Positions 670 to 63,066 of a stretch of 64,000 bases of DNA are shown here, piece by piece. Where the stretch lies: the IMG/VR virus record IMGVR_UViG_3300045988_145635; one strand, given 5' to 3'. The stretch's first letter is position 1, and every line of letters starts with the position of its first letter. The DNA is from a virus. Lineage: Duplodnaviria > Heunggongvirae > Uroviricota > Caudoviricetes. The notes beneath the pieces are model-generated. The model had not been told where the DNA came from. It saw only the letters and a program-made list of their open reading frames with translations, and did not search any database. The position numbers and the translations under genes were made by a program.

Positions 670-1263
670 ATGATTGCAGCCGAAAAAATCAAACAGCGAA
701 AGCGCGACAACTCTCTTCGTGACCTCTGGAGAACACCTGACTGGCTGTTTTCTGCCATTCAACGTTATCTTGGAGTGACATTTGATGTTGACGTTGCCTG
801 CAACAAGGACAATGCAAAGCTGCCTAATTTCATAGGCGTTGAGCGTGATGCTTTGAAATCTGAATGGGGACAGCCAGGTACAATTGCCTTCCTCAATCCA
901 CCCTACTCCAAAATCTCCCCCTGGATTGATGCGGCTATACGTGAGCAGGCTCGCGGAGTTACAACAGTGATGCTAATTCCTCAATCCCTAGATACAAAGT
1001 GGTATGAGCGTGCAACAGAGTGTGCGAATGAGACGATTATTCTGTCTGGTGGCCGCGTAGCGTTTGTCGAGCCTGACGTCAATCTGGGTCAGGTAGAAGT
1101 AAACATCAACCCAGGTGGCAGTATGCTCGTTGTTTTTCGAGGATTCTGTCAGGACGCTGGGCACTCTATAAGCAAGATCCCTTTGGACGTCATGAAAAGT
1201 CTGGGAGGGTATGATCCTGCGAATGTGATCAGGAAAAAAAGACCATCAAAGAAGGCTGCTTAG
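670..1263 (+). CDS. Phage-type DNA N6-adenine methyltransferase (Dam-like)
   Basis: 197 aa; motif IV-like FLNPPYS; layout typical of small phage Dam-family methylases. Confidence 0.7.
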   Translation: MIAAEKIKQRKRDNSLRDLWRTPDWLFSAIQRYLGVTFDVDVACNKDNAKLPNFIGVERDALKSEWGQPGTIAFLNPPYSKISPWIDAAIREQARGVTTVMLIPQSLDTKWYERATECANETIILSGGRVAFVEPDVNLGQVEVNINPGGSMLVVFRGFCQDAGHSISKIPLDVMKSLGGYDPANVIRKKRPSKKAA

Positions 1264-1285
1264 TTTGTTCTGGCGTCTGTAATTA

Positions 1286-1342
1286 GCCTGCTTCTGTATA
1301 TATAAATAACTACATATTAATTATTAATATACGGAAGCAGGC
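1286..1342. repeat. Long palindrome, copy A (17-bp arms GCCTGCTTCTGTATATA with AT-rich centre); likely factor-independent terminator
   Basis: Near-perfect inverted repeat gcctgcttctgtatata / tatatacggaagcaggc followed by TGTTTTGT; related copies at 32642-32696 and 63945-64000. Confidence 0.6.
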
Positions 1343-1448
1343 TGTTTTGTATCAGAGACTCCAGACCTGAACATCACTACAGAATCCACTAGAACCCCTT
1401 CCCAGACGCTTTAAAATCGATTTTATGAACCACTTTAAGGAAACCAAC

Positions 1449-1676
1449 ATGTCATACCCGACTAATGTCGTTGCGCTCGTAGAGAGCGATTTTCTGGCCC
1501 AGGCTCGTGAAATGATGAAAGATCGTGAGCAGGCTTTCAACTTGTACGAATGGGCAATTAAGTGCTTGCATCTTGGCGAGCATCGCGAACTTGTTGAACA
1601 GCTTTTAGGTGAGTTGATCAATGAGGTGTTTGCCTTGAATGTTCAACTACATGGTAGAGAAAATAATCAATCATAA
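1449..1676 (+). CDS. Hypothetical small protein
   Basis: ORF with AAGGAAACC spacer before ATG at 1449; no motif recognised. Confidence 0.4.
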   Translation: MSYPTNVVALVESDFLAQAREMMKDREQAFNLYEWAIKCLHLGEHRELVEQLLGELINEVFALNVQLHGRENNQS

Positions 1677-2264
1677 TGATAGATAAGTACAAACTATTCA
1701 TAAAGTGAATTGTAAGTGCTAAGATCTGATAGTTTCCAGTCGTAGACTGGAGACTCGACCTGATGGGTGGGGGTAAGCGTCACTGGCGTCAGGTTTAAAA
1801 AAAGCTCACTACCAGCGTAGAACTGGTGCCGTTTAGGTGTCGGGGAAGGGGGAACCAAAGTGAGCGGAGACAAGGGTCACTTTATGATTGTCGAGTCTGG
1901 GGTGTTTCGAGAGGTTGAATCCAGTACTCCCCTTCATAAAGTGTGGGAAGATCTCGGTTCTGGGGTGCTGTCATCCATAACTTCCCAAGTCTAAGCTGGC
2001 AGTAGACTTAGACCATAACTTTTCAGGTTATGAAACGACCAGGTTGGTGAGGGATTTTTATACTCACCTCCCTGGGAGAGTATTACCTGAAAAGACAACC
2101 TCTCACTTCGTTCGAGGTGAACTTCACTCACTTCGTTCGTTCAGTTCAGGTTTATAAAAACCTGTTCTGGGAAGTAATTTGTTTATTTTAATAATTATTA
2201 ACACGCACGCGTGTGCGCACGCGCGAGGAAAAAAATCGGCGCGGCGCTTGATTCAGGAGTTTAT

Positions 2265-2858
2265 ATGACGACGAAGACACCAGCCCGATCGCAAGAAAAA
2301 ACTCGCAAAAAAGCCAAAAACAAAAATTCTCCCCGCACCAATTCCACAACGCCTGTCGTAGAGTTCAATCCCCAGCTTAAAACCGTGAAAATCTTCAGTG
2401 ATGGCTCTTGCCTTAAAAATCCGGGTGGCCCGGGCGGTTACGGTATAGTTCTCCAGTATCGTGGTGAGGAACGCGAGTTCTCAGATGGTTTTCATAGCAC
2501 CACCAATAACCGCATGGAGATGATGGGGGCACTTATCGGGCTGGAGCGTTTGAAATATCCATGCAACGTTATTTTGCACTCTGATAGCCAGTATCTGAAA
2601 AACGGCATGACACAGTGGATGAAATGGTGGAAACGCAATGGATGGATGACTTCTGACAAAAAACCGGTAAAGAATGTTGATCTGTGGAAGCGTCTGGATG
2701 AGGCCGCAAGTCGACATAATGTTCGCTGGAAGTGGGTTAAAGGTCACGCCGGGCATCGTGAAAATGAAATATGTGATCGACTCGCGAAGATCGCAGCTTT
2801 TTCCGCAGCAGATATGCCTCACAAGAAAGATATTGGTTTTGTTTACAACAAGCAGTAA
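2265..2858 (+). CDS. rnhA: Ribonuclease HI homologue
   Basis: [59 protein letters not shown] match RNase HI active-site regions; AGGAG RBS before ATG 2265. Confidence 0.8.
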
Positions 2859-3003
2859 GTAAGTGTTTACCTATCATTTTAAATCATGTATCTTATCGGC
2901 GTCAGGATGACAATGTGTCGGTAAGACACAGTTCCAGGATGGAACGAGAAAGGCGGCTGGCAATCGCCAGCCGCAACTCTTTCTGACACTGGATGGAGTC
3001 CAC

Positions 3004-3498
3004 ATGGCACGTCAAACCTATTTCACTTCTGCAACTAAACGTCCTCGTTCACTACGTCAAATTTTGGCCGAATTATTTAGCGGTCGTGTTCTGTCACGTC
3101 TTGATGAACTAGAGACTGCCGTTCGGTTGCTGAATGAACGTTTAGATAAGCAAGCGTCAGTTGTTGCGAACGTGGGGGCGATTGTTACCTCTGGTTCTTC
3201 ACGCGAAGCGAAAAGTACACGGCCTTTAGTGAAGGAGAAAAACAACAAGGACAGTTCGAATGGAAAATTTTCAAAGAAAGAGGCTGAAACCAATGGCCTA
3301 CGTTCTCATTATAGTTTCACTGGCGACGGTAGCCGTTCCAGCCGGCCAGAGCCTTTTGATGCCGGGTTCATCCATCACCACACCTCCGTCGACGACAATT
3401 ACCACCACTCCAGTAGAGCGTCCTGTCACTCTGGATGGGATGACGGTGGATGCGATACCTCAAGTTCATCCAGTTACTCAGGATCATGCTGTGACTAA
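3004..3498 (+). CDS. Hypothetical protein (Ser-rich low-complexity C-terminus)
   Basis: ORF with GGATGGAG upstream; an overlapping alternative frame encodes a hydrophobic peptide so the true frame is uncertain. Confidence 0.3.
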   Translation: MARQTYFTSATKRPRSLRQILAELFSGRVLSRLDELETAVRLLNERLDKQASVVANVGAIVTSGSSREAKSTRPLVKEKNNKDSSNGKFSKKEAETNGLRSHYSFTGDGSRSSRPEPFDAGFIHHHTSVDDNYHHSSRASCHSGWDDGGCDTSSSSSYSGSCCD

Positions 3499-3507
3499 GG
3501 CGGTTGT

Positions 3508-3705
3508 ATGAACTGGTTTTCAAATCACTTTGGAAAAACTTGGCTGGCGATTCTGGCTTTCATAGCTCTCATGGCCGCCGGTTGGGTATCGAACATTGTA
3601 AAACTCGTTTGCTCTGGTGATCTCCAGTTTCAGGCTGGTATGACCTTGGCTCGTGTTGTTGGGATTTTTGTTTTTCCAGTCGGTTCGGTACTTGGTTATT
3701 TCTGA
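3508..3705 (+). CDS. Small membrane protein (2 predicted TM segments)
   Basis: 65 aa, hydrophobic stretches LAILAFIALMAAGWV and VVGIFVFPVGSVLGYF. Confidence 0.4.
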   Translation: MNWFSNHFGKTWLAILAFIALMAAGWVSNIVKLVCSGDLQFQAGMTLARVVGIFVFPVGSVLGYF

Positions 3706-3798
3706 CGGTTGTTAGTGCATATGCATTGACCGTCTTTTCGTAAGCAATTCATGTAACTAGAAAACAACTTGTTTTAACAAATAACAAAAGGAAAGCAC

Positions 3799-4224
3799 AT
3801 GTTAGGTTTATTCAAAAAGAAAACTCGTAAAGCTGTTATCGAGGTCAAAAAAATGGAGAACCGAGATGCGGTTGAAGCCACCGTGTGGGGCGCGTACATG
3901 ATCTCCTATGCCGATGGCACATGCGACGCAAAGGAAATTTCCATTCTTGAGAAAACAATTGCAGCTCTGCCTGCGTTTTCTCCGTTTGCTGGTGAGATTG
4001 CCCAAATGAGCGCCAATATCCGTGCTCAATACGAAGCCTCACCGCGCCGCGCTAATGCCCAGGCTTTACGTGAGCTGGCTGATGTGGCCGGGACTAATGA
4101 TGCAGTAGATGTACTGTGTCTGTGCCTTGATATTGCCGACCAAGACGGTATTGGCGAACAAGAAGAGCTGGCCCTGAAAAAGATCGCACAGGCGCTTCAG
4201 TTGTCACTGGATGCTTATCTCTAA
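3799..4224 (+). CDS. TerB-like domain protein
   Basis: Two DG-x-x-D/E-x-x-E-x-x-x-L segments (YADGTCDAKEISILEKTIAAL; DIADQDGIGEQEELALKKIAQAL) as in TerB-family proteins; operator motif A upstream. Confidence 0.55.
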   Translation: MLGLFKKKTRKAVIEVKKMENRDAVEATVWGAYMISYADGTCDAKEISILEKTIAALPAFSPFAGEIAQMSANIRAQYEASPRRANAQALRELADVAGTNDAVDVLCLCLDIADQDGIGEQEELALKKIAQALQLSLDAYL

Positions 4225-4382
4225 TGCTTGAGAGATTCCGGCTTGTGACCGTCATTGCTCTTCTGGTGATGGCGGTGTTGGTGGATTTTACGGGAAAGAT
4301 GATGTCTGTCATTTCTGATGGCGTCCTCATTGGTCTGGCGATCTACTTCGCTTATCCGCTAGTCCGTAAAGCAACGTGTTAA
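4224..4382 (+). CDS. Small hydrophobic protein (52 aa), translationally coupled to TerB-like gene
   Basis: ATG overlaps the TAA of the upstream gene (TAATG); MLERFRLVTVIALLVMAVLV... two hydrophobic segments; below the ORF-track length cutoff. Confidence 0.4.
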   Translation: MLERFRLVTVIALLVMAVLVDFTGKMMSVISDGVLIGLAIYFAYPLVRKATC

Positions 4383-4521
4383 TGACAAGGGCCAAATGGC
4401 CCTTGTGTTTCGTTGACCGAAATAGAGAGTTTGCACCTTTACGTTTAGCTTGCTCCCCTTTTATGCCACATCACAATAAAGCCAATAAGAAAACAACTTG
4501 TTTAAGCATTAGGAAAAACAC

Positions 4522-5091
4522 ATGTGCAAGAAATGCAAAGCGATAGCTGATGAACAAAACGCCTTATTCGAAGAAATGGATGCTAATGAACTGGTCAAAA
4601 TGTTAGCCATTCTTCGAGGAATAGAAGACGTTTCCATATTTGAGAGAGTGGTTACAGCACTTAATTTTGAGTCCACCTTTGAAGAGCCAACTCAGGTTGT
4701 AGCTTTAGCACATCATTTCGGTGTTCATTATCTTGCTGAAAAAGAGCGCGCTGATAAGTTGCAGGCGACTTTGGATATGGTGAGCGAGACTCAACGAACT
4801 GATGACACTAACAAGAGTGAGGCGATTATTGCCAGCAAAGATCGTGAAATTGCTGGGCTTAAATCCTCTCTAACGATGTTGATGTCTGCGTTCAATCTTA
4901 TGTCTTCTCAGGCGGGTTATAAAATGCCATCACTAAACAGCGATGATCCGATGGCCGTTCGTCAGCTTTTGGGAGCAATGGCCGACCAACTCGACGACAC
5001 AAAGAGTCGGCTTGAAGACATGATGCGTGAGTTAAGCCATCGACATAACCTCGCAACACAGCCACACAAAGCCTTTCAAAGCTCTAATTGA
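4522..5091 (+). CDS. Hypothetical protein
   Basis: 189-aa ORF preceded by operator motif A (4488-4504). Confidence 0.5.
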   Translation: MCKKCKAIADEQNALFEEMDANELVKMLAILRGIEDVSIFERVVTALNFESTFEEPTQVVALAHHFGVHYLAEKERADKLQATLDMVSETQRTDDTNKSEAIIASKDREIAGLKSSLTMLMSAFNLMSSQAGYKMPSLNSDDPMAVRQLLGAMADQLDDTKSRLEDMMRELSHRHNLATQPHKAFQSSN

Positions 5092-5146
5092 TCTGATATG
5101 GCCGCATGATCGGCCATATTGTGTTGATAAAAAACAAGGATGAAAA

Positions 5147-5428
5147 ATGGCATACGGTACAGGGATTTACAACAATAAAGGAATTAACGTTACTGGCTTC
5201 CTTACTCCTATTTTTTTTCTTGATCGATTTACTGCGTCATCAGGCTCTAAGACGTACTCCAATCCGCCACCGGGTAAATCGCTACATGCCGTGTGGTCAT
5301 TGATGCCTCTTAACAACGACAACTACATTAATTTACCTGTTCCAACAGTTACTATTAATGGAAATACGGTTAGTTGGTCAAATTTATATACGGGGCTTGG
5401 TTCTTACATATACACATACTGGGGATAA
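5147..5428 (+). CDS. Hypothetical protein (AT-rich gene)
   Basis: ORF with AAGGATG RBS; low GC relative to neighbours. Confidence 0.4.
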   Translation: MAYGTGIYNNKGINVTGFLTPIFFLDRFTASSGSKTYSNPPPGKSLHAVWSLMPLNNDNYINLPVPTVTINGNTVSWSNLYTGLGSYIYTYWG

Positions 5429-5430
5429 TT

Positions 5431-6045
5431 ATGTTCGGGATGTCAATTACTCAATCAGATGGAAGTTTGTGGATGAGTCCAGAATTTACTCCGCAAAATC
5501 TGATTAATAAAGGGACAATGTCTACATCTAAAGGTTCTGTTTTTCAAACATCAATCCCATCAAACAAATCATGCTTTTTCTTCATAAAAAGCAGTAATAA
5601 GGCGAACATGATGTTTATTCATGAGCATAGTAACGGATACAATGCTCTCAGATTGCATCAGGTAAATGGTAGCCCCGGAACAATAACAGTTTATGCTTTT
5701 TCTGATATGGTGTTACCACATTCTGGCTATGGCATTGCCATGTATAACAGCGCAGGCGCAATGGTGTATCACGGTGAGATGATGCCCCTTGATGCGAAAC
5801 TTATCACTATTTCGGACCCTCAATTTACCATAGATGTGGGGTATCCGTGTGCGGTAATGCCTGCTATGGTTGGGGTTTATAACTATAGACGAACCGATTA
5901 CGACAGACCTGTCTATGTAACTATGACCGGTGCAACTGGAAACCAAGTATATAACGGTCAATGGTATTCCGGTAATGTCACATGGGATATTAAGAAGATT
6001 TATACAAACAAAATCCTGGTTATAAATACCTCAAAGTATGATTAG
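5431..6045 (+). CDS. Hypothetical Tyr/Gly/Asn-rich protein
   Basis: ORF immediately after the previous gene; AT-rich; no motif recognised. Confidence 0.45.
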   Translation: MFGMSITQSDGSLWMSPEFTPQNLINKGTMSTSKGSVFQTSIPSNKSCFFFIKSSNKANMMFIHEHSNGYNALRLHQVNGSPGTITVYAFSDMVLPHSGYGIAMYNSAGAMVYHGEMMPLDAKLITISDPQFTIDVGYPCAVMPAMVGVYNYRRTDYDRPVYVTMTGATGNQVYNGQWYSGNVTWDIKKIYTNKILVINTSKYD

Positions 6046-6148
6046 CAAATACCTTTATTTAAAGGATTGCCTGTTAATTTCTATTTAGCACCTTTTCATT
6101 TTTGAAATAATTGCACCATTAAACAAATCTTTTCTTAATGGTGCAATT

Positions 6149-7834
6149 ATGAATACAGCTCTTTCCATCATCGACGATGCCAACTCAAACACTGCTATCG
6201 ATTATCGTCAGGAAATGAACGTCATCCACGAAATTGTGGCCGAGTGCGAGAAGGAGATCGCCTTCATGTATCAGGTTCACGACTTCGTTTATGGAGACGA
6301 ACGCCACAACATGATTAATCGCCTGCTGCAACTGAACCACCGACCAGATGAAGAACGCTCACGTTTGAATCGAGCTTGGCTGGATAAAGTCGATCTGGAA
6401 TGGGTGAAACAGAATATTTGGGCCGAGTACTGGAGGAAGGTCACGGATATGACTAACGTTCTGCTGATCATGCCAGCTTCCCGTCGCGACGAGTGGCGTG
6501 AGCAGTTTATCGAGGGTAAGCAGGAAGTCATCAAAACTGACAGAACCGGCTATCAGATGAAGGTAAAAGAGTTCGTTGGTGTACCGGAGTTCAAAGCAGA
6601 AACGGTCATACCCACGATGCTTAATTTGCTGAATGACAGGCACAAATATCTCTCTGAGCGCGTGTATGGCTTGTTTAAGGCGCTGAGTCCTGCGCACAAG
6701 ACAAATAAGACAAACGGTTTCAGCGAACGTCTGATAATCGCTGACTGCATTTCTGATTTCTGGCGGGACAGCGTTAGTGTGAACTATCGCAAAGAGGACT
6801 ATATCGACGATCTGCGTGTCTTGCTTCATTTCTTCGCGCACAAAGAATTTATTACCATCAACCGCACTGCTGAGGTGCTATCAGCTGCGTATCGGGCAAA
6901 CGACTGCCAGACCGGTGACTGGATGAACGTCGATGGAAATCTGATGCGCGTGAAGATGTTCAAGAACGGCAACGTTCACTTTGAAATACATCCTGACGTG
7001 GCCTGGAAGTTGAATGAGGTGCTGGCTTACAGTATGCCTGCTGCAATCCCCGCGCCATGTCGCACCGCGCCAAAAACACGGGCACCAAAGCAGTTCGGGT
7101 TAATCCAGAAGACGATCTCCGTGCCGGTTCGCACTGCGCTTCGTGACGGGCGATTGAGCAAAGACAAAGGCGTATGGTACTTCTCTGATTCAGCTCTCCA
7201 GAAGTCGCAGGTGGAAGAGCTTGAGCGCACACTGAGCTTCATTGGCGGCGTGCAGGAGAAAAAGCACTGGCAGTTCCCGTATGACATCGTCCATACGCTA
7301 AATACGATTGTGGCTACCGGTTTAATACCGGATACAAAATCACACCAGTTCTACCCTACCCCACGCTTGATTGCTGAGTACGTTGCCAGAGCCACTGAAT
7401 TGAAGCCTGGTGAGAAGCTGCTGGAGCCTCAAGCCGGACGTGGGGATCTTCTGGCCTATATTAACGCCGATCTGGAAGATGTTACCTGCATAGAAATCGC
7501 ACCTCTCTTCGCTGATATCCTGCGTGGAAAAGGGTATACGAACACGATTTGCTGCGACTTCATAAAGTGGTCTGAGGACAACGTAGGTTATCAGTTCGAC
7601 AAAATCGTTATGAACCCGCCGTATTCGCTTGGTCGTCATAGAGAGCACACGCTGGCTGCGCTGGGGCATCTGAAAGTCGGCGGGCGTCTTGTAGCAGTAT
7701 TGCCGGGCACTGCGCCAATACTGGACTGGATGACGATGGATAATTACGTTTATGCCAGAGGGAAGTCGTTTACCAACGAGTTTGAAGACACAGGGATCAC
7801 AGTCAGCGTATACGTTTTCAAACGCGTTAAATGA
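6149..7834 (+). CDS. DNA methyltransferase, gamma-class N6-adenine type, with ~340-aa N-terminal domain of unknown function
   Basis: C-terminal motifs in gamma order: FYPTP (motif X), LEPQAGRGDLL (motif I), IVMNPPYS (motif IV). Confidence 0.7.
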   Translation: MNTALSIIDDANSNTAIDYRQEMNVIHEIVAECEKEIAFMYQVHDFVYGDERHNMINRLLQLNHRPDEERSRLNRAWLDKVDLEWVKQNIWAEYWRKVTDMTNVLLIMPASRRDEWREQFIEGKQEVIKTDRTGYQMKVKEFVGVPEFKAETVIPTMLNLLNDRHKYLSERVYGLFKALSPAHKTNKTNGFSERLIIADCISDFWRDSVSVNYRKEDYIDDLRVLLHFFAHKEFITINRTAEVLSAAYRANDCQTGDWMNVDGNLMRVKMFKNGNVHFEIHPDVAWKLNEVLAYSMPAAIPAPCRTAPKTRAPKQFGLIQKTISVPVRTALRDGRLSKDKGVWYFSDSALQKSQVEELERTLSFIGGVQEKKHWQFPYDIVHTLNTIVATGLIPDTKSHQFYPTPRLIAEYVARATELKPGEKLLEPQAGRGDLLAYINADLEDVTCIEIAPLFADILRGKGYTNTICCDFIKWSEDNVGYQFDKIVMNPPYSLGRHREHTLAALGHLKVGGRLVAVLPGTAPILDWMTMDNYVYARGKSFTNEFEDTGITVSVYVFKRVK

Positions 7835-7895
7835 TAGGTAAATACTTACCTAATTTGTGTAAGAATGTAGTTACTAAACGATAAGAGAAAAACAC

Positions 7896-8600
7896 ATGAA
7901 CAACCTCCAGTTAGAGCATTTTAACGTCACAGGCCATTCTGATTTTCCTTTCAAGTTTACATTGAAAGGTTATGCAGAGGATGCGGTAGGCCAGATCATT
8001 ATTGATAAAGGCATCGTTAAGTTTGAGGGGGATTTTGATGAATCCGCGAAAACATTCATAGACTTCGTTGCCAAACGTTGGAGCGAGCAATGGAAAAACC
8101 TGGAAAAGCGCGCCAATGAGTTTGATCGGTTCATGGATGCAATGGATACAGCAAAAGAGGCTCTTGATGCCGGGACTCCGTTAGATCTGGAGTCACTTTT
8201 CAACGGCGAAGTGGCCTCTGCGATGTTTGCCACCATGTTCGCGGGTGAGTTCGTCCGCAGCGGTGCCAAAAACTACCTTGAGCTGGATTACAACGTCCCT
8301 GCAATTGGCGATTTCGTCGTTACCATCCAACGCAAAGAAGGTAAGACGCCAGGTGAACGCGTCGCAGAGCTTGAGGCCGTTGTGGATCAGCGTAACGGAG
8401 AGTGTGACCGTTTGATCAACGAGCTTCATGCACTTCGGGAAGAAAGAATATGCGCGGGTAGTAATACACGTAATGCAGCGGATATCTACTTCCAGTTAGT
8501 TGAGGAATGCCAGATTCCACCAGGTGGCTCTCTTGTCGATTACGTAAGACATTTAATGGCGGAAGTTAGCTCCAGCCATAAAGATGGTGAGGTGCGCTGA
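7896..8600 (+). CDS. Hypothetical protein
   Basis: 234-aa ORF; motif B site upstream (7833-7854). Confidence 0.5.
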   Translation: MNNLQLEHFNVTGHSDFPFKFTLKGYAEDAVGQIIIDKGIVKFEGDFDESAKTFIDFVAKRWSEQWKNLEKRANEFDRFMDAMDTAKEALDAGTPLDLESLFNGEVASAMFATMFAGEFVRSGAKNYLELDYNVPAIGDFVVTIQRKEGKTPGERVAELEAVVDQRNGECDRLINELHALREERICAGSNTRNAADIYFQLVEECQIPPGGSLVDYVRHLMAEVSSSHKDGEVR

Positions 8601-8980
8601 TGTTTGGCATTGACGCACAGCGTATAGCCGCTTTTGCAAAAAGCCCTCTTGATAATCCCTTGTCTCGTAGTGAGCAAATGGAGCTGGCAAGGCTTTTTCT
8701 TCACATTCAAAAACAGGCAGACATTTTCAATAACATGCCTAATCAACCTATTCTGGATGGTCACATCCAGATGGTCATTAACAGTCATGAGAAAGGCTGG
8801 GCTGCAATCGTCCCCAGCACAATTACATACAAGTTGGCGAAAGAGGTTCAAGAGTTTCGAAAAGCCAGTGTCGAATCTGAGTCTACCAAAGCCGCAATAA
8901 ACACTCTTATTCGCATGGGATTCACATGGAACGGTGGAGCCTACTGGCAAGCACCTCACCCCATTTTATCCGGCAATTAG
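8600..8980 (+). CDS. Hypothetical protein
   Basis: Start overlaps upstream stop (TGATG); 126 aa. Confidence 0.5.
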   Translation: MFGIDAQRIAAFAKSPLDNPLSRSEQMELARLFLHIQKQADIFNNMPNQPILDGHIQMVINSHEKGWAAIVPSTITYKLAKEVQEFRKASVESESTKAAINTLIRMGFTWNGGAYWQAPHPILSGN

Positions 8981-9035
8981 ACGCTACAAATCCTTCTGCG
9001 TGAATAAATAAAGGCCATAAGTTGTGGCCTTAAAT

Positions 9036-9091
9036 AAATTGTTTTCTGCCTTTTCTTATTTGTGAAAATAACCACAACTAGAAAACAACGG
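9036..9091 (+). promoter_or_regulatory. Conserved promoter/operator module (TTGTTTTCTGCC ... GAAAACAA half-sites)
   Basis: ~45-bp module shared with 17143-17210 and 21217-21262, lying directly upstream of a start codon. Confidence 0.5.
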
Positions 9092-9099
9092 AGTTAAGA

Positions 9100-9741
9100 A
9101 TGTCTAGTATTTCCGAAGCACATATGTTCGCCGCTGGCGCTCATGGTGGCGTTGGTCAGAAAAGAAAATATACCGGCGAAAACTACATCAACCACCCGGT
9201 TGCTGTCCGAGAGATTGTTGCATTGCATGACGGAACCGTGGAGATGCAAATCGCGGCGCTTCTGCATGATGTGGTCGAAGACACCCATGTAACCATAGAG
9301 ATGGTTCGTGATCACTTCGGTGAGCGCGTAGCTGAAATGGTTCAGGCTCTGACCAACATTGCAAGGCCAGAAGACGGCAATCGAATACAGCGTTTCATCA
9401 TCAATGTCCGGGAGCTGGAGCAAAATCTCGACATGCAGACGCGCATGATCAAGCTGGCTGACCTGCTCGACAATACCTCTTCTATCGTGAGTCGCGATCC
9501 TGAGTTTTCAGCTATCTACCTTGCAGAGAAAGAGCTGATGCTGGACGTACTTTTTAACGGGAAGGAGATTGGTGCCAACGCTGATGTTGTCGAGTACATG
9601 GAGAGGATAGGTATAGAACACCCGTTGTTATTAAGCGCAAAGGCGAAAGTCACTGAAGGTATTGCGCTTCTGAAACCGGTACACATCAAACGTTATGAAA
9701 AACACAAATCGCTGATCTGGAGCGCGTGGGAGGCTGCATGA
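9100..9741 (+). CDS. HD-domain small alarmone hydrolase-like protein (RelA/SpoT hydrolase fold)
   Basis: HPVAVREIV ... AALLHDVVEDT matches the (p)ppGpp-hydrolase HD signature; 213 aa single-domain size. Confidence 0.65.
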   Translation: MSSISEAHMFAAGAHGGVGQKRKYTGENYINHPVAVREIVALHDGTVEMQIAALLHDVVEDTHVTIEMVRDHFGERVAEMVQALTNIARPEDGNRIQRFIINVRELEQNLDMQTRMIKLADLLDNTSSIVSRDPEFSAIYLAEKELMLDVLFNGKEIGANADVVEYMERIGIEHPLLLSAKAKVTEGIALLKPVHIKRYEKHKSLIWSAWEAA

Positions 9742-10280
9742 AGGTCGAAAAAATAGATGTTCTTTCCTTTGTGCTGACGGATCTGGAACGCCTCGATCCG
9801 GTTCGAGTGATGATTGAAAACTACGAACCTGGTAAGGGAAGAATCACCATCACCTGCTACGGAAAAGCGTGGACTGCGGCTTGGTTTGCTATGGGCGGTG
9901 ATGATGTGCAGACGTTCATTAAGCGAGTTAGCAACGATTATCTAATCGACAATTTCGACCCTCAACTGCTAAGCACGGTCGACGATGACAACGATGCAAA
10001 TCTGCTTTTCGTAAAGTCAGAAATCATAAAGTTACGAAGAGAGAGAGAAATAGACGCCGTACTGGCTCGCGAAATGTGGGACGAGGCGGAAAACGCCGAT
10101 GACGTAAAAGAAAGCTGCTGTTGTTTCGGCGTCGGTAACAAACTGCTGAATCTCTTTGGTGATGATCCGTGGTATGCCGACTGGCCAACGGTACCAAACC
10201 CGAAATACCAGTATCTGGAACGCATTGTGAACGCGGTACGTGAAGGGCTGAAAGAGTTAGATAAGTTAGAGGCATCGTAA
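9738..10280 (+). CDS. Hypothetical protein
   Basis: ATGA overlap with upstream gene, GGAGG RBS. Confidence 0.5.
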   Translation: MKVEKIDVLSFVLTDLERLDPVRVMIENYEPGKGRITITCYGKAWTAAWFAMGGDDVQTFIKRVSNDYLIDNFDPQLLSTVDDDNDANLLFVKSEIIKLRREREIDAVLAREMWDEAENADDVKESCCCFGVGNKLLNLFGDDPWYADWPTVPNPKYQYLERIVNAVREGLKELDKLEAS

Positions 10281-10723
10281 TGAGAGAGAAAATCAAGAAC
10301 CCGGTCGTCGTATTGTATAAACGGGAAACCAGCGATTCTTATGCGGTATCCATCACTGATGGAAGCCAGAACATGCACGATGGTCTGCTAATGGCCTCCG
10401 TATCTCCTGATGATTCTGACTACCCTTTCGCCACTTTCGCTATGGTTGGTTACTACATGGCTGCCGAAATTGAGAAGTTGCGTGTTGAGCTGGAGACCGT
10501 TAAACAGCGGGAAAAGGATCTGTTTATGGAAAATGTTCGACTTAAGTCAGGTATAGCAGGTCTGATACACCTCGGTATTCGATATGCGGATGTCGAAGTC
10601 ATGAAAATAGCTGGAGATGCCCAGCTTTCTACTCCCTGTACTGACAGCATCATAAACAGTATTGCATCAGGCGTTTTCACCAAAGAGGGTCAGCATGATG
10701 AGAACAGTAGAAGTTCGCGCTGA
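10280..10723 (+). CDS. Hypothetical protein
   Basis: TAATG overlap with upstream gene. Confidence 0.5.
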   Translation: MREKIKNPVVVLYKRETSDSYAVSITDGSQNMHDGLLMASVSPDDSDYPFATFAMVGYYMAAEIEKLRVELETVKQREKDLFMENVRLKSGIAGLIHLGIRYADVEVMKIAGDAQLSTPCTDSIINSIASGVFTKEGQHDENSRSSR

Positions 10724-10883
10724 AGATGTAATCCCAGGTGATGTGGTCATAACATCTAAAGGCAAACGATGTGCGGTTAAATCTTTCTGGATGGAAGGTG
10801 ACAAAGTGACTCTGTTCGGTACAGATGGTTCCGAAACGGATTATGACTACGACGAATTGCTTGTTGTTGAGAGAGCTATCTAA
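10695..10883 (+). CDS. Hypothetical small protein
   Basis: AGAGGG RBS before ATGATG; overlaps the end of the upstream gene. Confidence 0.4.
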   Translation: MMRTVEVRAEDVIPGDVVITSKGKRCAVKSFWMEGDKVTLFGTDGSETDYDYDELLVVERAI

Positions 10884-11536
10884 TGACCACCGTTAACAAT
10901 AAGAAATGCTACCCAAGCGAGAAATATCTTAATGAGCTGATCACCAACATTGAGTTTGCTGCAAGGGCACCAGTTGAAGTCGTGAGAGCGATTGCAGCAG
11001 AGCTACAGAAGCACCGTAAGGCCTATGCCAATACAGCAGCAACTAAGGATGGTTGGATAAGCTGTAGTGAGCGAATGCCTGTAATTGGCGAGCTAAATTG
11101 GAGAACTAGTTTTCCTTTACTGGTTACGTGTGAGATCGGCGTTATACCTGCTTATTACGGCTTTGTGAGCGTTAATGGTGATAGGCATTATGGCTTTATG
11201 GAGAGTCTTAAATACGGAGACGATAACGGCAACCATCCTCAAACTAATGAATATGGTCTGATTAGCAATGTCACACACTGGATGCCACTACCAGAACGCC
11301 GCAGGAGTCGAACAGTGAATAAAGCAGAGTTATTTCAGAAAATATCGGCTCTCGCGACTGAATGCCACGCTATAGCATCTGAGCTTGATGTTGGCGATGA
11401 ACGAACCGAGATGTTCGAAATATACAGTGTGCTGCGCAATCTCTGTCGGCGTGGCTACGCCACTCAAGTAGGGCGAATGACTAACCCACTACTCTCATCC
11501 TGTGATGAGGATGACTCGGATGAGGATGACGAATGA
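10883..11536 (+). CDS. DUF551-like phage protein with acidic C-terminal tail
   Basis: WISCSERMP ... THWMPLPE resembles the DUF551 signature as I recall it; TAATG coupling. Confidence 0.45.
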   Translation: MTTVNNKKCYPSEKYLNELITNIEFAARAPVEVVRAIAAELQKHRKAYANTAATKDGWISCSERMPVIGELNWRTSFPLLVTCEIGVIPAYYGFVSVNGDRHYGFMESLKYGDDNGNHPQTNEYGLISNVTHWMPLPERRRSRTVNKAELFQKISALATECHAIASELDVGDERTEMFEIYSVLRNLCRRGYATQVGRMTNPLLSSCDEDDSDEDDE

Positions 11537-11916
11537 TGCATAAATCAGTAGCCGGTGAGTTTCAGAAGGAAGTCGATAATACCACTGATCTATTGGACGA
11601 TATTTTAAGCATTCTCGCGCTGCTTGAGGCTGGCGATTGGTCAGAACATTGCACTAAAACAGAGCTAGGCGGTCGGCTTGAAAGAGAGATTACACGACTG
11701 ATTAGCGATGCCCAAAATGATTTGTCACCTGAGCATCTCCCCTGCGATGTAGTTCTTGTGCCAGGGATGAGGATACACGAAGGCGTCAGAACGAAAACAT
11801 TATTAACCGCATTACAGAGAAGAGCCGAACTAAGCTCGCGGATAAAGTTGATGCCATCCAAAATATTTGATGTCGTCAAATTTATGCCATCGCAACATAC
11901 TGAGAGAGATAAATGA
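11533..11916 (+). CDS. Hypothetical protein
   Basis: ATGA overlap with upstream gene. Confidence 0.5.
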   Translation: MMHKSVAGEFQKEVDNTTDLLDDILSILALLEAGDWSEHCTKTELGGRLEREITRLISDAQNDLSPEHLPCDVVLVPGMRIHEGVRTKTLLTALQRRAELSSRIKLMPSKIFDVVKFMPSQHTERDK

Positions 11917-12539
11917 GCACGGTAGCGAAAGATCTCACAGAAGATATTCTCAATGAAATTATTGCTGGTGCAAATACCTCGCTTGAGCAACTTCTTGCGT
12001 TAGCACTGAGAGCCGAACGTCGAGACAGAAATCGTTTTTATGAGCGATTACCAGGGAAGCGACCAGATAGATCGGATGAAGAAGGTTGCGATATAGACTA
12101 CATGGAGCCTTCAGAGATTTATCAACTTGGTAAAGATGACGGCTGGAACGCTTATCACGATGCTGTGATGAAGTTGGATGAAAAAGTTAAACCTCTTTCT
12201 CGACCGGTAGATCACGGTTTCCGCGATAACTGCGAATGCTCTAGTTGCCAGACCACGGCCCGTATTTGTTCCGAATTGACAGATAAGTCCAGCCTAATCT
12301 ACGAAGTTAATGTAGGCGGTAATACATGGGTCGAATGCACAAGAGCTGCATACGTAAGAGCAAAAGACAAGGGTGAATTAACCAGAGTTGTTACCAATCA
12401 CCCAAATAATGAGCTTAAAGATCACCAGATTCGAGAACTGGTGAACGAGTTGAGAGATATTGCGGTTCAGTACCACGGAACGCAGCAATTGCGGGAGAAG
12501 ATTGCCAGAGCAGTGAACAACTCAGTCCGTAAAAAATAA
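11913..12539 (+). CDS. Hypothetical protein
   Basis: ATGA overlap with upstream gene; followed by a hairpin terminator. Confidence 0.5.
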   Translation: MSTVAKDLTEDILNEIIAGANTSLEQLLALALRAERRDRNRFYERLPGKRPDRSDEEGCDIDYMEPSEIYQLGKDDGWNAYHDAVMKLDEKVKPLSRPVDHGFRDNCECSSCQTTARICSELTDKSSLIYEVNVGGNTWVECTRAAYVRAKDKGELTRVVTNHPNNELKDHQIRELVNELRDIAVQYHGTQQLREKIARAVNNSVRKK

Positions 12540-12556
12540 GCAATAGTACGATAAAG

Positions 12557-12583
12557 AGGCCCCATGCTCTTGATGGGGCCTGT
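12557..12583 (+). terminator. Factor-independent terminator closing the left-arm operon
   Basis: AGGCCCCA-loop-TGGGGCCT stem followed by a T. Confidence 0.5.
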
Positions 12584-13304
12584 AGCAACTAGCGTTATGG
12601 ACGCTGGTTTACGTACTCAATGATCGCTTTGATAATCGCGAACATCGGCGGCACGATTTTGAACAGTAAGTTAACCATAACAGGCCTCACTTAGTTTTAT
12701 CGCGCCTAGCTGCAAATACCTTTGGGCTTGCCTTTGCAGTTGCAATATCTGTAGTCGCCAGATACTTACGGCACGATTTCGAGTTAAGGTAAGGTTTTAG
12801 AGTCACCAAAAACCTGGACTTAAATCTTCTTTGAGAACAACGATGTTTAGTAAATGGTCATTATTACCTGGTATGACCACTCAACGTTTCTTGATGAATC
12901 CAGTACATTCGGTTAATCTTAATTCAGTCGCCAGATACTTATGGCTCAGGAACAGAGCCGCAAACTCTGTTTCCTTTTAAAAAGCCCAGCCTAGTCAACT
13001 GGGCTTTTTAATGTCTATTTTTAACCCAATGAACCTTCAATACCGCAACATCAGTGTCTTGCGAATTAAGATAGTGTGTATAGGTTATGCATGCAAGTGC
13101 ATAACTCTGTGGATAACTCAGGAAGGAAAAAGTAGCTTCCGCGCAATTTAGGCCAGACAAGGCTTTCGCAAAAGTCAACAGAGAGAAAAAATTTGTTAAA
13201 AATAACGTTTGTTGGAATTGTATATATTTATGCCTTTCAATAGTTAGCATCTTATTAACATCTTTTTTAAGAGATAGAGTTCAAAAATATATAGCTTCAA
13301 CATA

Positions 13305-13324
13305 TACTGTATGTGTATACAGTA
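13305..13324 (+). promoter_or_regulatory. LexA (SOS) box
   Basis: TACTGTATGTGTATACAGTA fits CTGT-N8-ACAG; 17 nt upstream of the UmuD-prime-like start. Confidence 0.65.
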
Positions 13325-13340
13325 TTAAGAGGCGAGTATT

Positions 13341-13730
13341 ATGGGCTTCCCTTCTCCTGCGGCGGATTATGCTGAGAGCCGTATTTCTCTTGATCAGCAG
13401 ATAATTAGACATCCTTCAGCGACCTACTTCATGAGGGCAGCTGATAGTCATCATCGTGAGGGAATATTGCAGGGCGCATTGCTGGTGGTCGATTCCTCAC
13501 TTACCCCGGTTGATGGTTCTCTGCTTGTATGCGCTCTGGATGGGGAATATCGCGTAAAAAGATACCGGAAGTATCCACGTCAGCATCTGGAGGATTTAAG
13601 AACTGGTAAGAAGGAAGCATTGCCAAAGGATGACGATGGATGCACGGGCAGCAATGCCGTGTTTGGTGTGATCACTCACATTATCAACGACGCAAGAAGT
13701 GGCGAGTTTGATGATTGTCCTGTGATGTAG
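13341..13730 (+). CDS. UmuD-prime-like S24 peptidase-family protein (HumD-like, pre-truncated UmuD mimic)
   Basis: Begins MGFPSPAADY, i.e. at the position of the UmuD self-cleavage site; conserved Ser (ADS) and Lys (VKRYRK) positions; SOS box upstream. Confidence 0.7.
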   Translation: MGFPSPAADYAESRISLDQQIIRHPSATYFMRAADSHHREGILQGALLVVDSSLTPVDGSLLVCALDGEYRVKRYRKYPRQHLEDLRTGKKEALPKDDDGCTGSNAVFGVITHIINDARSGEFDDCPVM

Positions 13731-13767
13731 GAGAACTGTTTAGGTGGTGCAATGCACCACCTTTTTA

Positions 13768-14868
13768 TCACACTGCGCGGAATGCGATTTCGCCAGGTAT
13801 TACTTCACCTTGCCAATACATTTGGGCAGCAACGCGATCTGCGAGGTCACGATAAATAGCCGTAAATTCGCTATCTGGACGACTAATAACGGTTGGTGTT
13901 CCGTTATCCAGATCTTCACGAAGAGAGATATGAAGTGGCATTTGGCCTAACAACTGCGTGTTGTATTTCTCGGCCAGTTTCTGTGCGCCACCGGTGCCAA
14001 AAATTGGCTCGTGATGACCGCAGTTACTGCAAATATGCACACTCATGTTTTCGACGATACCCAGTACCGGCACTTCGACTTTTTCGAACATCACAATGCC
14101 TTTCTTCGCATCGATCAGCGCGATGTCTTGCGGCGTAGTTACCACAACCGCACCAGTTACAGGAATGTTCTGCGCCAGCGTCAACTGAATATCACCAGTG
14201 CCCGGCGGCATATCGAGAACGAGATAGTCCAGATCAGGCCATAGAGTTTCCTGCAACATCTGCATCAGCGCCTTGCTGGCCATCGGTCCACGCCACACCA
14301 TTGCATTGTCGTCGGTGACCAGATAACCAATAGAGTTGGTTGCCAGGCCATGAGACATGATAGGTGCCATGTGAGTACCGTCCGGTGAGGTTGGACGTTG
14401 GTTTTCCGCGCCCAGCATGGTTGGAATTGATGGACCATAGATATCGGCATCCAAAATACCAACTTTCGCACCTTCAGCAGCCAACGCCAGTGCCAGATTT
14501 ACCGCCGTGGAGGATTTACCTACGCCGCCCTTGCCTGAGCTGACGGCGATAATGTTCTTAACGCCATTAATGCCTGGTTGGTTTTTGACGCGCTTAAGCG
14601 TGGCAATGTTGTACGACAGCTTCCAGTCAATAGCCTTTGCGCCAGTGATACGGAGCAGATCACCACTACATTGCTCTTTCAGGTCTTCAAAAGGCTTATT
14701 CCACACGAAAGGCATGATTAGTTCGACATGCAGTGTGTCATCCATCAACGCAACATGGTGTAACGCTTTAAGCGTAGTCAGGTTGTGTTTCAGGGTTGGG
14801 TGCTGAAAATTAGCCAGCGTACCGGCTACCATTGCTCTCAGGGCATCCGGCGATTTGGACTCGCTCAT
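13768..14868 (-). CDS. apbC: Fe-S cluster carrier ATPase ApbC (Mrp)
   Basis: 366 aa; Walker A SSGKGGVGKSS, CxxC (CSNCGH); near-identical over its length to enterobacterial Mrp as I recall it. Confidence 0.93.
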   Translation of the reverse strand: MSESKSPDALRAMVAGTLANFQHPTLKHNLTTLKALHHVALMDDTLHVELIMPFVWNKPFEDLKEQCSGDLLRITGAKAIDWKLSYNIATLKRVKNQPGINGVKNIIAVSSGKGGVGKSSTAVNLALALAAEGAKVGILDADIYGPSIPTMLGAENQRPTSPDGTHMAPIMSHGLATNSIGYLVTDDNAMVWRGPMASKALMQMLQETLWPDLDYLVLDMPPGTGDIQLTLAQNIPVTGAVVVTTPQDIALIDAKKGIVMFEKVEVPVLGIVENMSVHICSNCGHHEPIFGTGGAQKLAEKYNTQLLGQMPLHISLREDLDNGTPTVISRPDSEFTAIYRDLADRVAAQMYWQGEVIPGEIAFRAV

Positions 14869-15025
14869 CCCGTCTCCTTTATTTTAATTTGCGCAATTGT
14901 CGCCTTGTAGTGTACTCCAGCTACGACATTTAATCATTTATGAGAAATGCTGTTATCACATGGCAGACATAAGGCCATTTTGTTACTATCAAGCCCCTTT
15001 TCACTACAAAGAAGTAATGCCTACT

Positions 15026-17059
15026 ATGACCCAAGTCGCGAAGAAAATTCTGGTGACGTGCGCGCTGCCGTACGCTAACGGCTCAATCCACCTCGGCCAT
15101 ATGCTGGAGCACATCCAGGCTGATGTCTGGGTTCGTTACCAGCGAATGCGCGGCCACGAGGTTAATTTCATCTGTGCCGACGATGCCCACGGTACGCCGA
15201 TCATGCTGAAAGCGCAGCAGCTTGGTATCACACCGGAGCAGATGATTGGCGAAATGAGTCAGGAACACCAGACTGATTTCGCAGGCTTTAACATCAGCTA
15301 TGACAACTATCACTCGACGCACAGCGAAGAGAACCGTCAGTTGTCTGAGCTTATCTATACTCGCCTGAAAGAGAACGGTTTTATTAAAAACCGCACTATC
15401 TCTCAGTTGTACGACCCGGAAAAAGGCATGTTCCTGCCGGATCGTTTTGTAAAAGGCACCTGCCCGAAATGTAAAGCGCCAGATCAATACGGCGATAACT
15501 GTGAAGTCTGCGGCGCAACATATAGCCCGACTGAATTGATCGAGCCGAAATCGGTGGTTTCTGGCGCTACCCCGGTAATGCGTGATTCCGAACACTTCTT
15601 CTTTGATCTGCCTTCTTTCAGCGAAATGTTGCAGGCATGGACCCGCAGCGGCGCGTTGCAGGAGCAGGTGGCGAACAAAATGCAGGAATGGTTTGAATCC
15701 GGCCTGCAACAGTGGGATATCTCCCGCGATGCGCCTTACTTCGGTTTTGAAATTCCGGACGCGCCGGGCAAATATTTCTACGTCTGGCTGGACGCGCCGA
15801 TTGGCTACATGGGTTCCTTCAAGAATCTGTGCGACAAGCGCGGCGATACCACCAGCTTCGATGAATACTGGAAGAAAGACTCCACCGCCGAGCTGTACCA
15901 CTTCATCGGTAAAGATATTGTTTACTTCCACAGCCTGTTCTGGCCTGCCATGCTGGAAGGCAGCAACTTCCGCAAGCCGACCAACCTGTTTGTTCACGGC
16001 TATGTGACAGTGAACGGCGCGAAGATGTCCAAGTCTCGCGGTACCTTTATTAAAGCCAGCACCTGGCTGAATCATTTTGACGCCGACAGCCTGCGTTACT
16101 ACTACACTGCGAAACTCTCTTCGCGCATTGATGATATCGATCTCAACCTGGAGGATTTCGTTCAGCGCGTGAATGCCGATATCGTGAACAAAGTGGTTAA
16201 CCTGGCCTCCCGTAATGCAGGCTTTATCAACAAGCGTTTTGACGGCGTGCTGGCAAGCGAACTGGCTGACCCGCAACTGTACAAAACCTTTACTGATGCC
16301 GCTGAAGTGATTGGCGAAGCATGGGAAAGCCGCGAATTTGGTAAAGCTATCCGTGAAATCATGGCATTGGCTGACCTGGCTAACCGCTATGTCGATGAAC
16401 AGGCTCCGTGGGTGGTGGCGAAGCAGGAAGGGCGCGATGCCGATCTGCAGGCGATTTGCTCTATGGGCATTAACCTGTTCCGCGTGCTGATGACGTACCT
16501 GAAACCGGTACTGCCGAAACTGACTGAACGTGCAGAAGCATTCCTGAATACAGAACTGACCTGGGATGGTATCCAGCAACCGCTGCTGGGCCATAAAGTG
16601 AATCCGTTCAAGGCACTGTATAACCGTATCGATATGAAACAGGTGGAAGCACTGGTGGAAGCATCCAAAGAAGAAGTGAAAGCCACAGCCGCACCGGTAA
16701 CTGGCCCACTGGCTGACGACCCGATTCAGGAAACCATCACCTTTGACGACTTCGCCAAAGTTGACCTGCGTGTGGCGCTGATTGAAAACGCGGAGTTTGT
16801 TGAAGGCTCTGACAAACTGCTGCGTCTGACACTGGATCTCGGTGGGGAAAAGCGTAATGTCTTCTCAGGCATCCGTTCTGCTTATCCCGACCCACAGGCA
16901 TTGATTGGTCGTCACACCATTATGGTGGCTAACCTGGCTCCGCGTAAAATGCGCTTCGGTATCTCCGAAGGCATGGTGATGGCTGCTGGCCCCGGCGGGA
17001 AAGATATCTTCCTGTTAAGCCCGGATGCTGGTGCTAAACCTGGCCACCAGGTTAAGTAA
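15026..17059 (+). CDS. metG: Methionine--tRNA ligase
   Basis: HIGH motif (ANGSIHLGH), KMSKS motif, zinc knuckles CPKC/CEVC, C-terminal tRNA-binding domain; start chosen at [11 protein letters not shown] (the ORF-track start at 14897 is an upstream extension). Confidence 0.96.
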
Positions 17060-17079: not shown

Positions 17080-17106
17080 ATGCCCGGCAACACGCTGGGC
17101 ATTTTC
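17080..17106 (+). terminator. metG terminator
   Basis: ATGCCC-loop-GGGCAT hairpin followed by TTTT. Confidence 0.5.
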
Positions 17107-17142: not shown

Positions 17143-17210
17143 AAAACAATTTGTTTTCTGCCTTTTGTTAATTGAGATAATAAGCCACATAAGAAAACAA
17201 ATTGTTTCGG
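17143..17210 (+). promoter_or_regulatory. Paired operator motif A sites (AAAACAATTTGTTTT and AAGAAAACAAATTGTTT) flanking a GATAAT -10-like hexamer
   Basis: Two palindromes 48 bp apart immediately upstream of the 17221 start. Confidence 0.55.
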
Positions 17211-63014: not shown

Positions 63015-63018
63015 AAAT

Positions 63019-63051
63019 CATGCATTGGCGCGTACATTGCGCCAATGCATG
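63019..63051. terminator. Bidirectional hairpin terminator between convergent genes
   Basis: 13-bp perfect stem CATGCATTGGCGC / GCGCCAATGCATG. Confidence 0.55.
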
Positions 63052-63066
63052 AGTACAATGTCAGTT

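Follow-up and report, generated by a model that had tools for sequence, protein, structure and literature searches.

A DUF4942-methyltransferase fusion gene of an SSU5-like phage-plasmid: a probable self-protective adenine methylase behind a lineage-specific leader hairpin

A stretch of 64,000 nucleotides of viral DNA (IMG/VR record IMGVR_UViG_3300045988_145635, in the following called the window) carries a gene which raises two questions: what does a solitary methyltransferase with a long N-terminal extension do for the element that encodes it, and what is the role of the inverted repeat located at its start codon? The source element is an SSU5-like phage-plasmid. Over 2.2 kb surrounding the gene, nucleotide identity with Escherichia phage Cyrano amounts to 97.5%; the counterpart in that phage is CYRAN_90, labelled 'DUF4942 domain-containing protein'. 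Salmonella phage SSU5 shows about 90% nucleotide identity with the same gene order, and its counterpart, SSU5_095, is labelled 'DNA methyltransferase'. A protein of 100% identity is encoded on the E. coli plasmid CP057798.1 and already appears in public records as "DUF4942 domain-containing protein". The open reading frame proposed by a first-pass annotation of the window was confirmed, with a product of 561 residues (Table 1). All of them (1-561) are covered by PHROG 6263 ('DNA methyltransferase'; profile positions 1-548 of 548, E = 3.9e-299). The gene is a member of the already annotated, very widespread and experimentally untouched DUF4942-methyltransferase family. With somewhat more than even confidence, its product is proposed to be a solitary self-protective N6-adenine DNA methyltransferase of the phage-plasmid, expressed from a leader as modelled below.

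The catalytic part of the protein was examined through its motifs. FYPTP, LEPQAGRGDL and NPPY follow each other toward the C-terminus in the order X-I-IV, as the first-pass annotation had stated. A search with the whole protein against all PDB chains returned M.TaqI as the sole match (E = 0.14), in an alignment spanning motifs X, I, II, III and IV. Among 29 homologues, down to 33% identity and including chromosomal prophage copies from Variovorax, the residues E449, D470, F471 and N489-P490-P491 were invariant. The Type II methyltransferase models of PADLOC as well as mad2 matched the core residues with E = 4e-10 to 1e-15, and the identity over the aligned core was 27% with CamA and 25% with TaqI. 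The core has the features of a class I Rossmann methyltransferase fold and is included in several PHROG families with very long profiles (1,259-3,925 positions), some of which are annotated as DNA methyltransferases. In one of them, PHROG 9133 (1259-position profile), residues 328-560 were matched as a single unit (E = 4.5e-50). This unit takes in a small domain preceding the core (residues 328-394), in which G366, F376 and Y378 are invariant in the homologue alignment.

The gamma class assigned in the first pass is thus supported by the motif order (X, I, II, III, IV, with NPPY), which indicates a TaqI-like N6-adenine methyltransferase core. The defining feature of TaqI-like enzymes is a C-terminal target-recognition domain. 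Here only 69 residues separate NPPY from the end of the protein, this domain is absent and the extra mass is N-terminal. The protein is therefore gamma in motif order only.

The N-terminal two-thirds had been described as devoid of any recognisable motif, which proved incorrect. Pfam DUF4942 (PF13708) matches residues 140-295 (E = 1.2e-20, 74.5 bits against a cut-off of 25), its flanks are conserved, and the same family was found in 13 out of 13 diverse relatives. Residues 1-330 were scanned against 1.84 billion representative proteins, which gave 627 clusters at 50% identity. The non-fragments among the best 150 of these clusters are nearly all 510-590 residues long and carry the module at the matching N-terminal position, so that fusion of DUF4942 to the methyltransferase core appears to be the rule. 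The first-pass annotation had also considered a target-recognition module. The region does not behave as a variable recognition domain, since the DUF4942 core (residues 83-295) is conserved like the catalytic core: per 100 columns, 14.6 are invariant in the former and 13.8 in the latter. When the eight most distant relatives are compared, identity is 38.6% for the DUF4942 core and 41.4% for the catalytic domain. Invariant polar residues of the DUF4942 core include T102, R164, S180, H183, T185, N186, D221, R223, D262, H277, H281 and N289. The linker which follows (residues 296-327) keeps the pattern AIP..R..PK..K.F and shows one short helix (302-305) in the AlphaFold model, with otherwise little regular secondary structure.

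The first 82 residues contain no invariant column and share 11% identity with the distant relatives. In the model they form two helices (20-48 and 52-62) after a disordered stretch (1-18). Residues 1-53 alone match other Klebsiella plasmids with 70-80% identity (NZ_CP024875.1, CP067551.1, NZ_CP107375.1 and MZ690480.1), one of these matches falling under a gene annotated 'restriction endonuclease subunit M', and PHROG 25525 covers residues 1-54 only. This variable helix at the N-terminus may be either a shared module or the point at which different methyltransferase genes have recombined.

A profile of the N-terminal region retrieved nothing meaningful from all PDB chains. The module has no relative among solved structures and matches no enzyme family by sequence or fold. 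PDB matches to ZorA, VAMP2 and UDP-glucose dehydrogenase (E of 0.1 or weaker) were dismissed as coiled-coil noise. Mentions of DUF4942 in the searchable literature are incidental, with no functional study, and the same holds for the topics SSU5, pHCM2 and phage-plasmid combined with methyltransferase. It was considered whether DUF4942 is a second enzyme or an effector, making the protein bifunctional. Many of the invariant polar residues (among them H183, H277, H281, D221 and D262) would suit such a function, as would a predicted fold without solved relative and a conservation equal to that of the catalytic domain, which is atypical of target-recognition domains. PHROG 38825 (299 positions) matches residues 129-302 only, hinting at DUF4942 proteins that stand alone. 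The failure to match any enzyme family argues in the opposite direction, and so does the nearly constant fusion of the module to a core which otherwise has no substrate-binding domain; bifunctionality is judged very unlikely. A wider proposal is that DUF4942 represents an undescribed fold with an unusual conserved mode of substrate selection or a second catalysis, giving broad protection; separately, an RNA fold-back silencing read-through transcripts only would have replaced the repressor-operator control of the gene in the E. coli lineage. There is a small chance that this is correct. It would be exemplified by sequence-independent or structure-specific methylation of DNA (single-stranded or at replication forks), or by a second activity on the invariant His and Asp residues.

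Several observations weigh against a protective DNA methyltransferase with DUF4942 as its DNA-binding part. The Pfam N6_Mtase model stays below threshold (E = 0.049), and the strongest structural neighbours of the core are the RNA m6A enzymes METTL5 and PH1948. NCBIfam models of the Erm/KsgA type match weakly, with E = 1e-3 or weaker and far under their cut-offs. The DUF4942 module is neutral in net charge (pI 7.2), its DNA-binding role, held as most probable, was arrived at by elimination and without a fold match, and methylation data for any member of the family are absent from the searchable literature. Because of the structural neighbours and the weak Erm/KsgA matches, an RNA substrate was taken into account: the enzyme would then methylate adenines in rRNA, tRNA or mRNA and alter the translation of the host or of the element. 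The DNA Type II models and mad2 far outscore the RNA models (E = 1e-10 to 1e-15 against 1e-3 or weaker), the relatives cluster with DNA methyltransferases in the replication and early regions of prophages, and both the identities to CamA and TaqI and the long PHROG profiles mentioned above point to DNA. An RNA methyltransferase is accordingly regarded as highly improbable.

The solitary status of the DNA methyltransferase was assessed from its surroundings. Eighteen open reading frames spanning 670-17059 were analysed with Pfam and the five directly flanking the gene with PHROG. No nuclease family was found by either analysis, in agreement with the claim that no endonuclease gene is adjacent, with neighbours lacking a recognisable function formally leaving room for one. 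The neighbours encode membrane proteins, Ead/Ea22-like proteins, TerB, an HD domain, phage Dam, RNase H and others. No partner gene was conserved across four different contexts. In a Variovorax prophage (L006, 8001-10936), the homologue is located after a cI/cro-like switch and before an N6_N4_Mtase gene. In an Enterobacterales prophage (L008, 4948-12320), it lies amid replication genes (lambda P, DnaT-like) with N6_N4_Mtase and DNA_methylase genes nearby, and on IncHI2 plasmids it is found near a Dam-family gene. A tblastn search identified 2,548 plasmid records with a homologue, of which 1,360 are conjugative and 1,089 non-mobilizable, the latter probably including phage-plasmids. IncHI2 resistance plasmids and SSU5-like phage-plasmids of E. 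coli, Klebsiella and Salmonella are among them. Solitary methyltransferases on varied mobile elements without a conserved partner are the usual picture for self-protective enzymes. The gamma-order core, the lack of a detectable partner endonuclease and the location on a mobile element make a self-protective 'orphan' role the most reasonable one.

It was also observed that distant homologues in the early-right operons of lambdoid prophages form, together with the other solitary methyltransferase genes next to or near them, small 'methyltransferase islands' beside replication genes. In the window, a phage Dam gene (PF05869, E = 2.5e-38) is located 5 kb upstream, at 670-1263 on the plus strand; it encodes a solitary adenine methyltransferase of a different family. 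The element therefore possesses at least two solitary adenine methyltransferases.

Methylation could alternatively serve the epigenetic control of the element, for instance of replication timing, packaging or the choice between lysis and lysogeny, rather than protection from restriction. Dam of P1 and other phages offers a precedent. The Dam-type gene already present on the element, the high conservation of the N-terminal region suggesting one fixed target in the whole family, the replication genes (lambda P, DnaT-like) adjoining prophage relatives and the operator control which the gene shares with other early genes in its relatives would all be compatible with such a function. Several solitary methyltransferases side by side are, on the contrary, the usual pattern for broad evasion of restriction, and the epigenetic role is considered unlikely.

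The second question concerns the leader. The first-pass annotation had reported a perfect hairpin with an 11-bp stem, ending before the ATG. A hairpin is indeed present; its size and coordinates had to be corrected. The arms ATAATTGCACCATTAA and TTAATGGTGCAATTAT form 16 perfect pairs, the 11-mers (6110-6120 and 6137-6147) being only a part of them, and the right arm does not stop before the start codon but takes in its A and T. As RNA, the stem covers the Shine-Dalgarno GGUG (6140-6143) and A6149-U6150 of the AUG, and folds with -20.6 kcal/mol (z = -6.2), a stability reached by none of 200 shuffled sequences. When the window was simulated 100 times with a first-order Markov model, the longest perfect repeats (loops of 3-40 nt) had a mean length of 10.2 bp and a maximum of 13 bp; none attained 16 bp. 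No further copy of the arms was found in the 64 kb with up to 3 mismatches. Rfam covariance models gave no match in 5300-8700 with E up to 1. An intrinsic terminator was rejected: five of the 16 pairs are G-C, there is no U tract, GAAUACAG follows the repeat and the terminator scan was silent.

The leaders of related genes were compared for conservation of the hairpin. From 69 related loci, 28 distinct leaders were obtained, 26 of which could be aligned. The invariance of ATGGTG in the 26 leaders is not independent evidence, because this sequence was fixed in the pattern used to retrieve the loci; it is also identical in six relatives retrieved by BLAST. The full stem is present in the E. coli (Cyrano-like) group. 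One leader (L017) preserves it by a double change from T-A to A-T, a weaker 12-bp version with a double change from G-C to A-T is found in a sister group (L019), and two independent C-to-T changes in the left arm retain G-U pairing. Overall, 80% of the cells of the alignment are paired, against 27-49% in slid controls, with double changes at two pairs. The arms depart from the SSU5 state at six positions, and at each of them a mismatch has given way to Watson-Crick pairing. The hairpin does not characterise the gene family as a whole: it occurs in the E. coli (Cyrano-like) lineage only, apart from the 12-bp version in one sister group.

A sigma-70 promoter is predicted immediately upstream, overlapping the left arm. 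Its TG and the A2, A5 and T6 of its hexamer are invariant or at least 90% conserved in the 26 distinct leaders, and the arrangement aligns with five other leaders of the window. A simple consensus scan did not detect this promoter because its -35 element is weak, and it was recognised from conservation only. The transcription start is predicted near 6118, within the left arm. No terminator-like site was found on the plus strand between the upstream gene and the methyltransferase gene.

The promoter belongs to a repeated arrangement. A second perfect 16-bp inverted repeat in the window (17144-17159 / 17192-17207, 32-nt spacer) consists of two copies of AAACAANTTGTTT, which led to the recognition of this 13-bp palindrome. 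When up to one mismatch is allowed, the window contains 13 copies, 0.54 being expected. All of them precede a plus-strand start codon, at a distance of 11-40 nt or, where a pair of copies flanks a promoter, of about 55-65 nt. The cassette so defined reads, in order, -35 TTKACG, extended -10 TGnGATAAT, box AACACCAACAAGA, the AAACAANTTGTTT palindrome, a ribosome-binding site and ATG. AAACAANTTGTTT looks like the operator of a phage-plasmid repressor that would govern a regulon of at least ten early or accessory genes; no description of this operator was found in the searchable literature. The copies at 17144 and 17195 flank an extended -10 promoter, TGAGATAAT (17173-17181), just before an open reading frame starting at about 17221, and the distance of 51 bp between them points to cooperative binding or looping. 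In SSU5, the methyltransferase leader conforms perfectly to the cassette, and the operator is intact there and in Klebsiella relatives of the pJN2-26 type. In the window, the hairpin loop holds a degenerate copy instead (Table 1), and the left arm is composed of the -10 element and a modified CACCA box. CACCA is thus a generic part of the cassette and not a sequence evolved to pair with a ribosome-binding site; it also belongs to the cassettes at 19821 and 21973, where the ribosome-binding sites differ.

Some of these data count against a function of the hairpin as proposed here. The SSU5 and Klebsiella leaders retain only the pairings ATAAT/ATTAT and CACCA/TGGTG and fold no better than shuffled sequences. 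The covariation is not significant, 92 of 500 column shuffles reaching the observed score from few independent events. Both arms are otherwise constrained, one by the -10 element and the other by the ribosome-binding site and the ATG, with CACCA part of the generic cassette. Moreover, should transcripts begin upstream of 6107, the hairpin would throttle all translation, the start being only a predicted one. The hairpin could also be a functionless product of chance, brought about by the AT-rich -10 ATAAT facing the ATTATG start and by CACCA facing GGTG. All but the last of the points just listed would agree with it, since other constraints account for each of the two pairings and CACCA occurs in the cassettes at 19821 and 21973 beside different ribosome-binding sites. 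A perfect 16-bp stem in none of 100 simulated windows, six out of six arm differences from the SSU5/cassette state creating pairs and the survival of pairing through two double changes speak against chance, which is the least probable of the explanations considered.

Another possibility is that the repeat acts as DNA, as a lineage-specific repressor site that took the place of the AAACAANTTGTTT operator after its decay. Its location is typical for a repressor, since it extends over the -10 element, the predicted start site and the start codon, and it coincides precisely with the place at which the generic operator has decayed. The symmetric changes of both arms (L017 and the L019 group) would suit a dimeric protein as well. 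Perfect arms of 16 bp with a centre-to-centre distance of 28 bp are, on the other hand, unlike the short half-sites of dimeric repressors, and the arm sequence occurs nowhere else in the 64 kb even when 3 mismatches are allowed. Both single-arm variants are C-to-T changes which keep G-U pairing on the sense strand, a property relevant to RNA and not to a protein site. A DNA site is thus held to be distinctly unlikely.

From these elements, the following explanation is favoured, in which the enzymatic activity, DNA as substrate, the anti-restriction role, the transcription start and the insulation from read-through are inferred. The TaqI-like core is permanently fused to a family-specific N-terminal module made of DUF4942, the basic linker and the alpha/beta domain, and this module would most probably provide the DNA binding that the core lacks. 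Because the module is as conserved as the core, the family probably has one conserved, possibly loose, substrate preference and not a variety of specificities. Methylation of the element's own DNA would allow it to survive restriction in the next host. The gene would have its own promoter, inside a promoter-operator cassette that recurs before at least ten genes of the element. In the E. coli lineage the operator copy has decayed, and the region of the -10 element and the start site now pairs, in a 16-bp fold-back, with the ribosome-binding site and start codon. Transcripts starting near 6118 would miss most of the left arm and be translatable; those entering from upstream by read-through would fold and not be translated. 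Given the overlap between the conserved promoter and the left arm, the hairpin is probably absent from the gene's own transcripts and would probably be present in read-through transcripts only. The occlusion of the ribosome-binding region, as claimed in the first pass, therefore stands for the stem itself, which covers GGUG, and probably not for the mRNA of the gene.

Table 1. Positions, in window numbering, of the methyltransferase gene, the parts of its product, its leader and the copies of the palindrome.
Feature	Position (nt)	Strand	Details and basis
Predicted sigma-70 promoter	6084..6111	+	-35 TTTAGC 6084-6089, 16-nt spacer, extended -10 with TG 6103-6104 and AATAAT 6106-6111
Perfect 16-bp inverted repeat	6107..6150	+	Arms 6107-6122 / 6135-6150, 12-nt loop; sequence, folding, simulation
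Degenerate AAACAANTTGTTT copy, AAACAAATCTTTT, in hairpin loop	6121..6133	.	2 mismatches; motif comparison
Shine-Dalgarno-like GGTG, within right arm	6140..6143	+	5 nt upstream of ATG; sequence
DUF4942-methyltransferase fusion coding sequence	6149..7834	+	ATG 6149, stop 7832-7834, 561 aa; open reading frame list, translation
Variable acidic helical N-terminal segment, aa 1-82	6149..6394	+	pI 4.9; AlphaFold model, alignment
Conserved DUF4942 core, aa 83-295	6395..7033	+	Pfam match aa 140-295 = nt 6566-7033
Basic proline-rich linker, aa 296-327	7034..7129	+	pI 11.1; alignment, model
Small alpha/beta domain travelling with the methyltransferase core, aa 328-394	7130..7330	+	PHROG 9133, model
Rossmann-fold N6-adenine methyltransferase core, aa 395-561	7331..7831	+	Motifs X, I, II, III, IV
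Motif X, FYPTP, aa 401-405	7349-7363	+	Sequence
Motif I, LEPQAGRGDL, aa 425-434	7421-7450	+	Sequence
Motif II, acidic E449	within 7484-7498	+	M.TaqI alignment
Motif III, D470-F471	within 7550-7561	+	M.TaqI alignment
Motif IV, NPPY, aa 489-492	7613-7624	+	Sequence
AAACAANTTGTTT copies	3762, 4491, 9032, 17144, 17195, 18635, 19830, 20315, 21219, 21982, 32736, 32761, 61939		13 bp each

Further features of the window were recorded. An HD_4/HD domain protein (E = 1e-18) is encoded at 9100-9741 on the plus strand, preceded by operator-like sites at 9032 and about 9085; its homologues in SSU5 and pJN2-26 carry the annotation metal-dependent phosphohydrolase or (p)ppGpp hydrolase-like. On the same strand, 14897-17059 encode a full-length methionyl-tRNA synthetase (tRNA-synt_1g, E = 5e-166, with anticodon-binding and tRNA_bind domains), and a terminator-like hairpin lies behind this gene at about 17081-17106. 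Perfect inverted repeats of 13-14 bp were also seen at 12977-13011, 63018-63052 and 562-605. The first of them (TTAAAAAGCCCAG...CTGGGCTTTTTAA) is flanked on both sides by A and T runs and resembles a bidirectional terminator.

The most likely role of the enzyme is conventional, and the hairpin represents what lineage-specific remodelling has made of a generic promoter-operator cassette. Since the gene was already annotated and its likeliest function is self-protective DNA adenine methylation, the finding is useful and not surprising. If active, the enzyme would represent a very widespread and wholly uncharacterised family of solitary methyltransferases. Knowledge of its target would help to explain how such elements cross restriction barriers and to read m6A signals in clinical methylomes, and the enzyme could become a new loosely specific m6A tool. 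The structure of the N-terminal module would be informative, because its fold is well predicted and has no solved relative. Should the novel-fold proposal for DUF4942 turn out to be true, protection against many restriction systems at once would come from one family, present on more than 2,500 plasmids, phage-plasmids and prophages.

Compared with known systems, the gene is closest to the other DUF4942 (PF13708)/PHROG 6263 proteins (SSU5_095, CYRAN_90 and WP_032084800 of IncHI2), with which it shares the full-length architecture at 30-100% identity. Like the window gene, these relatives are solitary and are found on phage-plasmids, prophages and conjugative plasmids. The sole difference is the leader, with a 16-bp hairpin here and an intact palindromic operator in SSU5 and the pJN2-26-type Klebsiella elements. 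For the core, M.TaqI, M.BseCI and CamA, gamma-class N6-adenine DNA methyltransferases of solved structure, are among the closest known systems. In comparison, sequence support for the RNA m6A and m6,6A enzymes METTL5, PH1948 and KsgA/Erm is weak, and the context of the window gene is one of phage and plasmid DNA-modification genes. The leader has a parallel in the fold-back of the IS10/Tn10 transposase mRNA, in which sequence upstream of the transcript's own start pairs with the ribosome-binding site, silencing externally initiated transcripts only. The geometry in the window matches if the predicted start near 6118 is correct; the stem is here much longer (16 perfect pairs), and the left arm also serves as the -10 element. 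With regard to function, M.EcoGIX and M.BceJIII are plasmid-borne, single-strand-specific and promiscuous m6A methyltransferases of the beta class with DPPY, which were shown to aid plasmids in escaping restriction on entry (PMC7736820). Homology to M.EcoGIX was rejected on account of this class and motif, as the window protein has the gamma order with NPPY and a DUF4942 module; beyond the methyltransferase fold common to both, no homology was detected. What they have in common is to be solitary m6A methyltransferases on mobile elements of Enterobacteria, and in this respect M.EcoGIX and M.BceJIII provide a functional precedent for a loosely specific protective methylase.

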